NCBI GenBank assembly: GCA_964589775.1
Contig: CAZPUN010000022.1
Span: forward strand, 1-19,344
DNA from: an uncultured archaeon
GTDB taxonomy: Archaea > Asgardarchaeota > Thorarchaeia > Thorarchaeales > CAZPUN01
Reading direction: 5' to 3'
DNA: 19,344 nt
Within the stretch, counting starts at the first letter, position 1. Each line of letters opens with the position of its first letter. Under the pieces are notes generated by a model. The model ran no database searches and was not told the origin of the DNA. It worked only from the letters and a program-made list of their open reading frames with translations. This document shows, piece by piece, positions 1 through 11,032 of this stretch. A program made the position numbers and the translations under genes.

Positions 1-445
1 TCATATATTTGCCAGCCATAAGTTGAGCCATCTTCGAAGTCATCATAGAGTGTGTTATCGATACTAATATCATCGAAGTACCAGTTACCACGGGCTAGGA
101 ATGCATCGACTGTAGATATGGTAGCGGATGGGAACACAGTACGTACATCATGGAGCAGGTCGAGTTTGACAAGGTTCCAGTTTCCTTGTTCTAGATGTAA
201 TGGCAAGAACAGATATCCATTTGAGTAGTATGGGTTGAAAGTACCGGGTTTGTATGTGAGGTAGAAGCTGCCTGCGGAAGTATCAACACGAATGTAGATG
301 TACCAATAGGAGTCCAGAGGCTTTGCGGCGAATCTGAAATCTACTCGGTCTGAATATTGTGGTCTATGGCCTGCAGGAGTATTGTATGCATGGTCTGAAG
401 CGAACCAGAATCTGAAACCGTTTCCGGTTCCGGAGCTGACAGTTC
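1..445 (-). repeat. Left arm of a long intragenic inverted repeat (pairs with 9741..10185; may extend beyond the window)
   Basis: Position i pairs with 10186-i. There are 14 mismatches in 445 nt and no indels; 1..137 is identical. Confidence 0.98.
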
Positions 446-9500: not shown

Positions 9501-11032
9501 CCCCTGTGATCACTTCCAACGATCAATTAAATCTAGATACACAAACACCAAACTATGCTACGGCTATGGATGCTTCAACACATTCACTATACTTTACCAT
9601 TGAAGATAGATTCCTTACATTGAGATACAGAAATCTGCAATATGGAAGTGGAAGCACAAGCTATACTGTTTTCAGTGGTATTAATTTGAATTATGCAATG
9701 GATATGATGATTGCAATTGATGAGAACTCACGCGTTCTTCGAACTGTCAGCTCCGGAACCGGAAACGGTTTCAAATTCTGGTTCGCTTCAGACCACGCAT
9801 ACAATACTCCTGCAGGCCATGAACCACAATACTCAGACCGAGTAGATTTCAGATTCGCCGCAAAGCCTCTGGACTCCCATTGGTACATCTACATTCGTGT
9901 TGATACTTCCGCAGGCAGCTTCTACCTCACATACAAACCCGGTACTTTTAACCCATACTACTCAAATGGATATCTGTTCTTACCGCTGAACCTAGAACAA
10001 GGAAACTGGAACCTTGTCAAACTCGACCTGCTCCATGATGTACGTACGGTGTTCCCATCCGCTACCATATCTACAGTCGATGCATTCCTAGCCCGTGGTA
10101 ACTGGTACTTCGATGATATTAGTATCGATAACACACTCTATGATGACTTCGAAGATGGCTCAACTTATGGCTGGCAAATATATGACAGTTCTCCAGCAGG
10201 CGCAAAGATGTATGTTACTACCGATAGCAAAGCCATGAATGTTACTATGGTTTCTGGAATAACTACAAAAATATACACAACACAATTCCAAGGAAAAACA
10301 CTGATTAAGAAAATTATTCGCAAGTATACAATTAATTTGTATGATATTGTAGGTCCAAAATACAACTCAATGCTTAGATTGTATATAACAAGCGGAGACA
10401 ATAATGGTAATACAAGAACCTATGGATTCTGGCTTCCAGTGTACAATGAAAAGCCCGGAACAATTACAGTAATTCAACCGACTCAATCTACACTACCCGG
10501 TGATTCAACAATTAATATCAAGATTAGAGCGACAGATCCAAACAAAATTTCAAAAGTTAGAATATCTATATCAGACGGACATTACGCAATCATGCAATAT
10601 AGCTCCGGTTATTACGTATATTCATGGAGACCATCAAAAGAAGGAAGCTACAAGATAACCTTCACAATCGTTGATACGTATGGATTCACAACATCTAAAA
10701 CAATTAATCGATACGTCGGAGACTTTTCAGGCTCTATTAATATCATATCAAAAATATATTCATCAAAGACTCAAACAGTCTTCCTAAAAATTAAGGCAAC
10801 AGATCCAGATGGAGTTGGCTACATTAAAGTCCTTGTCGATAATCAGTACGTAGGAAGAATGCAGTATTCTTCAGGATATTACACCCTCTTAATTCATGTA
10901 GGTTCTTATTCAAATGGTCTTCATACAATCAAAATCATTATGTACGATCATCAGGGTGACAAAACCACAAAAACTACAACGTTCTATAAAATTCCAGATA
11001 TTCATCCTCCTGATGATCCTATACATAGCTAA
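6575..11032 (+). CDS. Large secreted multidomain protein B (1485 aa): signal peptide, clan-CD-like His/Cys domain, beta-rich core, Ig-like, CUB-like and CBM-like modules
   Basis: Signal peptide MKKEYISLALLILLVGSMAG. YIFH93S...FFIGC128NS. Ig-like signatures (DHSPP...NGWHTFYVFAVDNAG; two C-terminal ATDP...MQYSSGYY repeats). CBM-like WYFDDISI and DDFEDG..GW. No C-terminal transmembrane helix. Confidence 0.93.
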   Translation: MKKEYISLALLILLVGSMAGTMASPIIPTRNFNSSVIVFADKNDSIVSKSVNLLSNLFDQIVDYEVYYVDSFSSMVQSNEWHQDALAHIYIFHSNEYSIRIGSSTISWKFFANEIESTGVKNHFFIGCNSARITKYITNPHIHVKGFNETVDYFPATISTAAYFADIYDKVSENGFRLMDRIQKFINREDNYMKFVQRIITPKEVMKALHWNNTLYYKNKTLFNNYLLAALGLNTTEVKNFGLFQIVNNVYHFLTKGNLTTYLSASKIGKMIKAFLKGLSKTFKLSNTTNLKFGFLSVGSRIKTLVFSDDSLPMDVYAKIKQLYMTLTVKIAYHGEVNGIPITVYVKFNFYVYFDILLDYYASDHFHPDAEITSAYNGRMFVSKTGQPDSTIYKLVGYAKVPSPYGERTIEAWFSSTLKGVGFTRLYGGMVSMPGASFEFDLTKLSGSSDNNNKGNSTGSKILKFLKNLIPKVKVTGGDIVSLYLMFTGTDDGVNLMISLVENPISFGAEFKSSLKTNKSSIEVQLNVEVKLSIPMEGQMKFRSDKIILERLVTYFPVAFMKLHGHIKIKLGKKGLDKSFTLINRTGSNAFYFPTGKKVSPDSYIANVEAEYNNVFHINHGIRLFKVEYKPVPDVEIIMGSAFDHSPPYVTFMTPLAANDPSLHYDILQNIIQNISLFQIKKGKAKYIPLGDYVSSNLLSSGTLQAFVFMNKTTKISGDNATLRIYTFDEHPKVNGVWIMNNKVSKVFITVDDENAFLSNTTEVSVQRTLTATNPTYQYTFSRPKMYLMRAKIKVENPDPDKFFLVFLDNSGHVLRMVRIENGEIWTPWYSGNTIRFARGYFSINPKFINVDGEIVSTGGLQFEIPSTRPGASISIKILKIEYKAGIVWSSTDSSSSSHGYIKLKYSYRNTTGNGAVADKVGWKGIWYAYVDLYQRKLQGLENGWHTFYVFAVDNAGYTSKDEKVFLIDNPDDWEAPVITSNDQLNLDTQTPNYATAMDASTHSLYFTIEDRFLTLRYRNLQYGSGSTSYTVFSGINLNYAMDMMIAIDENSRVLRTVSSGTGNGFKFWFASDHAYNTPAGHEPQYSDRVDFRFAAKPLDSHWYIYIRVDTSAGSFYLTYKPGTFNPYYSNGYLFLPLNLEQGNWNLVKLDLLHDVRTVFPSATISTVDAFLARGNWYFDDISIDNTLYDDFEDGSTYGWQIYDSSPAGAKMYVTTDSKAMNVTMVSGITTKIYTTQFQGKTLIKKIIRKYTINLYDIVGPKYNSMLRLYITSGDNNGNTRTYGFWLPVYNEKPGTITVIQPTQSTLPGDSTINIKIRATDPNKISKVRISISDGHYAIMQYSSGYYVYSWRPSKEGSYKITFTIVDTYGFTTSKTINRYVGDFSGSINIISKIYSSKTQTVFLKIKATDPDGVGYIKVLVDNQYVGRMQYSSGYYTLLIHVGSYSNGLHTIKIIMYDHQGDKTTKTTTFYKIPDIHPPDDPIHS
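9741..10185 (+). repeat. Right arm of the long intragenic inverted repeat (pairs with 1..445)
   Basis: Reverse complement of 1..445 at about 97% identity and in the same codon phase. About 46% GC by manual count, versus about 33% in the 120-nt flank samples. Confidence 0.98.

Follow-up and report, generated by a model that had tools for sequence, protein, structure and literature searches.

The tufA and tufB genes of Salmonella offer a described parallel to the locus analyzed here, two outward-facing paralogous genes (A and B) that share an inverted repeat on contig CAZPUN010000022.1 of an uncultured vent archaeon of the Thorarchaeales (assembly GCA_964589775.1). The tuf genes are two expressed, oppositely oriented paralogues on one chromosome, with no dedicated invertase. 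Conversion of the RecA type keeps their sequences alike, and the intervening DNA can be inverted along with it, as happened in almost half of the tuf conversions selected at one position (PMC5485169, citing Hughes 2000). Gene-altering programmed inversions, shufflons and partial intergenic invertons (PMC9881135; bioRxiv 10.1101/2023.03.11.532203) constitute a second parallel: their in-frame inverted repeats lie in two homologous coding sequences (CDS) within 15 kb, as those of A and B do, and an inversion at the A/B locus would likewise exchange gene halves. Milman et al. 2023 predict such systems from a repeat of at least 44 bp, a CDS distance of at most 2,588 bp, an orientation matching of at least 0.58 and an asymmetry of at least 0.87 (PMC9881135). 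Archaeal inversions have been little studied, with 12 putative invertons in 42 datasets (bioRxiv 10.1101/2023.03.11.532203). A third parallel, the one chosen in the initial annotation of this sequence, is the sap locus of Campylobacter fetus, where surface-protein paralogues are rearranged by inversion through long homology. There, homology at the 5' ends allows a single promoter to move from one promoterless cassette to another.

The window, that is, the whole stretch analyzed, is contig C22 in its full length of 19,344 nt, from a genome of 2.16 Mb in 64 contigs with a completeness of 96.75%. Genes A and B lie back to back in it and point outward around a WD40 gene and a HAD gene (Table 1); their parts before and after the repeat are called here heads and tails. 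The tuf genes are near-identical throughout and their inversion changes little, whereas A and B have only one internal domain in common, between flanks that are 35-48% identical, so that new head-tail proteins would arise from an inversion. A distance of 9.3 kb and an archaeal host also set A and B apart from the tuf pair. Compared with programmed inversions, the A/B locus has neither a recombinase that we could find nor a truncated silent partner, and the orientation of its genes places the repeats far from each other. The sap analogy fits poorly: the homology between A and B is internal (codons 1056-1203), each gene has its own upstream signals, there is no promoterless cassette and no 5' homology (the first 300 codons are 52% identical in nucleotides), and the products of A and B are at most candidate S-layer proteins.

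The reading that we favor, with moderate confidence, is a recent domain-sized conversion between inverted paralogues, with a passive and probably rare inversion as a by-product of concerted evolution, as in tufA/tufB. Opposed intact paralogues, silent sites homogenised in a bounded tract and RecA/RadA machinery are the tuf-type features found here. A and B would be old inverted paralogues in a family of secreted proteins of about 1,480 aa. In recent times a single sequence would have replaced the greater part of the glycan-binding-like beta-sandwich domain in both, carried from one gene to the other by homologous recombination (gene conversion), and this probably more than once. The 445-nt inverted homology would then let RadA occasionally resolve as a crossover, flipping the 9.3-kb interior and giving viable A-head/tail-1 and B-head/tail-2 proteins.

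A homogenised domain in two diverged paralogues

The two arms of the repeat (1-445 and 9741-10185) differ at 14 positions, have no indels and are in the same codon phase, with 97% identity, just as the initial annotation had described them. This is the largest internal near-identical repeat of the 2.16-Mb assembly, the other long matches being contig-end overlaps or shorter than 200 nt. That annotation had also described strongly diverged heads and an abrupt step into the repeat. The step is present in the DNA but not in the protein, where identity has already risen to 66% over the 35 codons that precede the repeat, and the heads, at 35-48% amino acid identity, are those of clear paralogues. 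Overall, A and B are 49% identical.

The identity of the arms reflects recent DNA copying and not constraint on the protein. Among the codons that specify the same residue in both genes, 8 of 139 differ inside the repeat, against about 55% elsewhere (49 to 64% in every other A/B segment). Moreover, a third member of the family in this genome, paralogue C, lacks the near-identical tract and is only 63% identical in nucleotides (65% in amino acids) there. Silent sites and paralogue C together rule out protein-level selection as the cause of the high repeat identity. Such homogenisation is not general, since the module copies compared within other genomes of the order are only 65-76% identical in DNA.

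More than one round of conversion is suggested by two features. The first is a cluster of mismatches within the repeat, which is probably an unconverted patch between two conversion tracts, a mosaic of the kind that separate tracts typically leave. The second is the segment directly upstream of the repeat, in which A is closer to B than to C, though the heads group A with C (Fisher p=0.011, for a segment chosen after inspection and with saturated silent sites); it is a possible older homogenised tract. The repeat also stands out in composition. The GC content at third codon positions (GC3) is 0.47 in the tract and 0.30 in the rest of B (p=2e-5), which places it in the top 0.24% of genome segments, and paralogue C stands at 0.36 over the same stretch; the ratio for C-ending two-fold codons is 33:19 inside the tract and 105:242 outside. 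This composition would fit a foreign donor or biased repeated conversion.

The foreign-looking codon usage would also suit a one-off horizontal domain replacement or conversion followed by no further recombination, in which the orientation of the window is fixed and a flipped contig described below (L022) is a path choice of the assembler. The congruent ancestry of heads and tails speaks for such a single event as well, and so does an assembly signature that explains L022 fully. However, the clustered mismatches and the possible older tract upstream suggest more than one event, and an identical inverted core of 137-194 nt with copies 9.3 kb apart should be expected to recombine somewhat in a RadA-positive cell; we consider the one-off event improbable.

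Could the repeat be a mis-assembly, reads from one arm having replaced the sequence of the other? One arm does lie at the end of a contig, and the assemblies disagree at position 138. Yet the same 13 distinguishing arm alleles are found on the same heads in two assemblies, and the connection of the core to a different tail is seen independently on another contig. A mis-assembled repeat is thus largely refuted, and we give it hardly any weight.

Table 1. Coordinates of genes A and B, their inverted repeat and associated features (window positions unless another contig is named)
Feature	Position	Strand	Remarks
Left arm of repeat (in gene A)	1..445	minus	The contig ends here, position 1 being the last base that the arms share
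Right arm of repeat	9741..10185	plus	Gene B codons 1056-1203; most of the D-glucuronyl C5-epimerase-type beta-sandwich domain; GC3 0.47
Identical core	10049..10185 (mirror 1-137)	plus	137 nt; 194 nt (9992-10185) if both arms have G at 10048, as in L022
Mismatch cluster	9982..9991 (mirror 195-204)	plus	6 of 14 mismatches within 10 nt; P=2e-5
Older homogenised tract, candidate	9635..9740 (mirror about 446-551)	plus	Directly upstream of repeat
Potentially invertible interior	446..9740	none	9,295 nt; reversed in ENA contig L022
Gene A, head plus repeat	3..3575	minus	Full product 1471 aa, with tail 2 (L025:120-960) beyond the contig end
Gene B	6575..11032	plus	1485 aa
Tail 1	10186..11032	plus	Ig-like domains with a Pro-rich end; lacks a membrane anchor; 43% aa identity with tail 2
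Tail 2	L025:120-960		C-terminal part of gene A; Ig-like, homologous to tail 1
Upstream region of A	3576..3640	minus	TATA-like TTTATATA and GGAGG ribosome site, read by eye
Upstream region of B	6520..6574	plus	TATA-like TTTATATA and GGAGG ribosome site, read by eye
WD40/beta-propeller gene	3934..5640	minus	Passenger within the potentially invertible segment
HAD-family hydrolase gene	5755..6429	plus	Passenger within the potentially invertible segment
Paralogue C	contig C7, about 23968-28416	minus	Complete, about 1,480 aa

Two tails and the open frames of the chimeras

The 3' end of gene A, whose recovery the initial annotation had proposed as a check, was found in a metagenome scan on a separate contig of about 2 kb. 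JGI contig L021 (1,970 nt) and ENA contig L025 (2,198 nt) both carry this second tail and have the same start. Their first 119 nt are identical to the end of the arm and then diverge exactly at B position 10186. The repeat is therefore complete at 445 nt and the window ends at the fork; it does not start inside the repeat, as had been stated, but exactly at the last shared base. A contig end at this place had also been read as what mixed orientations or extra copies would cause. Contig ends in this assembly overlap by 141 nt, the default maximum k of MEGAHIT, and a break at position 1 is what any repeat near k would produce, so it is no sign of mixed orientations. That L025 comes from this organism is supported by its non-coding positions 1953-2198, 246 nt that are 96.7% identical to positions 15675-15920 of contig C32, near the end of that contig. 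The match could reflect a second duplication in this region or a different haplotype. Gene A without a tail, or as a pseudogene, was rejected, as L021 and L025 complete it to 1,471 aa.

Since tails 1 and 2 are only 43% identical at the amino acid level, a head-tail swap would matter, and the alternative of identical tails, with a swap of no effect, was rejected on the same figure. In silico, a single crossover in the repeat inverts 9,295 nt comprising both heads and the WD40 and HAD genes, and all four head-tail combinations are open frames, which bears out the geometry and the two intact chimeras proposed at first. The TATA-like and GGAGG motifs of both genes, as read by eye, sit inside the invertible segment; because these upstream signals would move with it, an inversion would reassort the tails and not switch expression. 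The start of gene A most likely lies at 3575 rather than at 3614, judging from the GGAGG upstream and from a signal peptide that aligns with that of B. A sigma-70 promoter scan of the sequence was at chance level, sigma-70 being the wrong promoter type here.

The head-tail pairing of the window is the ancestral one because head A and tail 2 are each closer to paralogue C than head B and tail 1 are. Informative sites grouping A with C and B with C number 162:64 in the heads and 51:32 in the tails.

An inverted arrangement in a second assembly

ENA contig L022 comes from a second assembly (ENA ERZ27262694) of the same population, which may share reads with the assembly of the window. A public sequencing run that contains 98% of the sequence words may be the source; a second run contains 14% of them, and no RNA run was listed. 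In contig L022 the A head is joined to the B tail, and the HAD and WD40 genes are reversed relative to the same right flank. The flipped arrangement that had been predicted does therefore appear, but its join is unphased and is no demonstration of flipping in cells. The identical core it crosses, 194 nt, is longer than k=141, so the join cannot phase head and tail and proves nothing. L022 ends on the left 99 nt past the last position at which the arms differ, and the contig with tail 2 begins 119 nt ahead of the fork; 99 and 119 are standard MEGAHIT k steps. A de Bruijn assembler that loses one entry edge and one exit edge joins either head to either tail, and the flipped form in L022 may be an assembly artefact. 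The head-tail join of the window itself, across a core of 137 nt, is better phased only on the condition that the arm in A always carries T at position 138. The two assemblies differ at 3 sites in 19 kb here and at 4 sites in 24 kb around gene C, and a Logan contig differs from both at 2 sites. Concerning other strains, none with the locus was found among the genome contigs, viral contigs or shorter proteins searched, and look-ups with the HAD, peptidase and B-head proteins matched only the contig of L022.

Several points weigh against conversion with a passive and rare inversion. L022 equals the in-silico inversion of the window save for 3 single bases in 19.2 kb. At window position 138 (the equivalent of 10048) in the A arm, the window has T and L022 has the B-type G, a difference suggesting that A heads with the B-type allele exist, through ongoing arm exchange or plain polymorphism. 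The donor of the high-GC3 tract was not found in the contig, viral-contig and homologue searches. Finally, the words passive and rare would be wrong if both orientations were common.

The match between L022 and the in-silico inversion, together with the arm site that differs between assemblies, also speaks for an active variation locus that dispenses with a recombinase. Both orientations would then occur at appreciable frequency, RadA crossovers would yield four surface-protein variants, and the repeat would be kept for swapping. The four open head-tail combinations, the tails of only 43% identity and the traces of both earlier and later homogenisation at one site point in the same direction. 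In its fullest form this is an Asgard archaeon that diversifies two co-expressed giant secreted proteins by symmetric recombinase-free inversion, with a glycan-binding-like domain that conversion keeps identical as the in-frame crossover site, both orientations in the vent population and four variants of an undescribed caspase-like adhesin family. We regard active swapping as unlikely, and the fullest form is no less doubtful. The join of L022 crosses a 194-nt identical core assembled with k=141, and the ends at 99 and 119 nt are MEGAHIT values. No expression switch would result. Moreover, in none of four other genomes or contigs (two genomes belonging to the order, an ENA contig and CP104013.1) is the full-length homologue accompanied by an inverted paralogue in the 5-10 kb inspected to its left and right.

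The attributes of programmed inversions also count against active swapping. The repeat (445 nt at 97%, longest exact run 137 nt, in both coding sequences) exceeds the length cut-off. The start codons of A and B are 2,999 nt apart, beyond the 2,588 bp allowed, a distance that becomes shorter if WD40 and HAD count as operon partners. Orientation matching is 0.34 by the published formula as interpreted here, below 0.58, and asymmetry is 0.011, below 0.87, both genes being full length. Hence only one of the four attributes, repeat length, clearly agrees with programmed inversion.

We looked for the recombination machinery in the genome. No match to PF00589, PF00239, PF07508 or PF02371 (tyrosine, serine and IS110-type recombinases) was found in the 96.75% complete genome, which extends to genome-wide profiles the initial statement that no site-specific recombinase lies in the window. 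Neither was a recombinase found among the open reading frames (ORFs) of the window or in a 183-aa ORF of the left flank, of which about 2 kb was covered. RadA-family genes are present (PF08423, best E 6.5e-100), in agreement with the RadA-type recombination proposed at the outset. PF00589, and hence even XerA, was not found in this genome; it is present in 14 of 14 control genomes and may lie in an assembly gap.

A dedicated programmed switch is less likely, since no recombinase and no silent cassette were found, one of four attributes agrees and the ancestral pairing is that of the window. The swap geometry and the distinct tails of the surface-protein variation system envisaged in the initial annotation stand; most hallmarks of a programmed switch are absent, and passive inversion is favored.

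Domain architecture of the A and B products

The product of gene B consists, in order, of a signal peptide, a caspase/CHAT-like domain, a beta-rich region, immunoglobulin-like (Ig-like) domains, a Glce-type beta-sandwich and an Ig tail, and the A product has the same layout. The Ig tails of the A and B proteins have a Pro-rich end and no anchor. The repeat tract (B 1056-1203) nearly coincides with one domain, the Glce-type sandwich (B 1049-1186). A profile built from homologues matches D-glucuronyl C5-epimerase (4pw2) with an E value of 3.5e-8, and in an AlphaFold model (pLDDT 92.9) B 1049-1186 superposes on the 4pw2 beta-sandwich with Z 13.3 and a root mean square deviation (rmsd) of 1.9 A over 121 residues. 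Regarding PF21174, homologue P0064 passes the Pfam cut-off and B itself gives no direct match. The likeness to D-glucuronyl C5-epimerase (PF21174; 4pw2) lies in the sequence profile and the beta-sandwich fold of the module, whereas the epimerase catalytic domain is missing from the A and B proteins. These carry the module once, apparently inserted in an Ig-like domain, while relatives have it in tandem copies. In the model two long strands flank the module, which suggests an insertion into an Ig-like domain whose halves would come from head and tail, on presumed strand pairing. The module (window 9700-10260) reads as a circular permutation of the tandem unit of the relatives, with an EDAEDG-GW-YD-PAGA segment after the core. 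A protein atlas gave only borderline carbohydrate-binding-module leads (score <=0.90), and the Ig-like domains showed generic matches to S-layers and adhesins with low TM-scores.

The N-terminal alpha/beta domain has the His-Gly and Cys dyad motifs that follow beta-strands in clan CD (caspase/CHAT-like) proteases. Its H, G, C and S residues are at least 90% conserved in 38 homologues, the first motif being HG in A and C and HS in B. The top structural match is SAVED-CHAT 8tl0 (Foldseek E 9e-4; Z 11.5, rmsd 4.1, 159 aligned), with sugar-binding alpha/beta folds close behind (Z 10.5). The domain may be an autoprocessing caspase-like pro-domain. Along its sequence (window 3000-3500 minus; 6650-7200 plus), a near-invariant His-Gly and Cys-x-Ser are followed by RxxxPxE, and among the homologues it is the N-terminal part of numerous secreted proteins that are otherwise unrelated. 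No clear fold match was obtained for the beta-rich central part of the head (about residues 250-560), searched as part of a larger model. We infer that the A and B products are secreted glycan-binding, possibly self-processing proteins. A targeted literature search returned no description of this caspase-like secreted family.

The protease domain of the gingipains belongs to the caspase-fold clan CD. The RgpA, Kgp and HagA proteins of Porphyromonas gingivalis are secreted and resemble those of A and B in combining an N-terminal protease domain, a putative one in A and B, with adhesin domains at the C-terminus whose repeats are identical from gene to gene, and their cleaved-adhesin repeats break automated assembly (PMC5266723). 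The likeness is architectural: the A/B module is a Glce-type sandwich, there is no gingipain homology above threshold, and genes A and B are adjacent and inverted.

Relatives and neighboring genes

A search of 86 other genomes of the order found the Glce-type module in 9 of them, often as tandem copies, and many further large proteins contain it. Full-length homologues from other genomes were found at L055 (CP104013.1:3684030-3708508), L044, L048, L052 and L053; they measure 1,344-1,934 aa and differ in their C-terminal tails. We take CP104013.1 to be Ca. Lokiarchaeum ossiferum, a cultured Asgard archaeon, which is consistent with the Asgard placement of the present genome. Near or inside large module genes of other genomes, repeats of 156-224 nt with about 85% identity were observed at L047:1260-1483 / 5793-6016 and L051:3882-4037 / 4476-4631.

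An Eco57I-type methyltransferase gene (11472-13523) adjoins gene B, and the same gene type adjoins paralogue C, which on contig C7 also lies next to a WD40-like gene of 672 aa. Further to the right (13536-19078), an M1 peptidase with a C-terminal membrane anchor, a TPR protein and an aconitase are encoded; they are unrelated to the repeat.

Implications

If both orientations were real and common, the locus would be a rare archaeal case of combinatorial surface-protein variation without an invertase or a silent cassette. On the likelier reading, that of conversion with a passive inversion, it offers a clean example of a recent gene conversion on the scale of one domain, and it cautions that a single population may yield two assemblies with opposite orientations. 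The family occurs in several Asgard-type genomes and could be studied in the cultured organism of CP104013.1.

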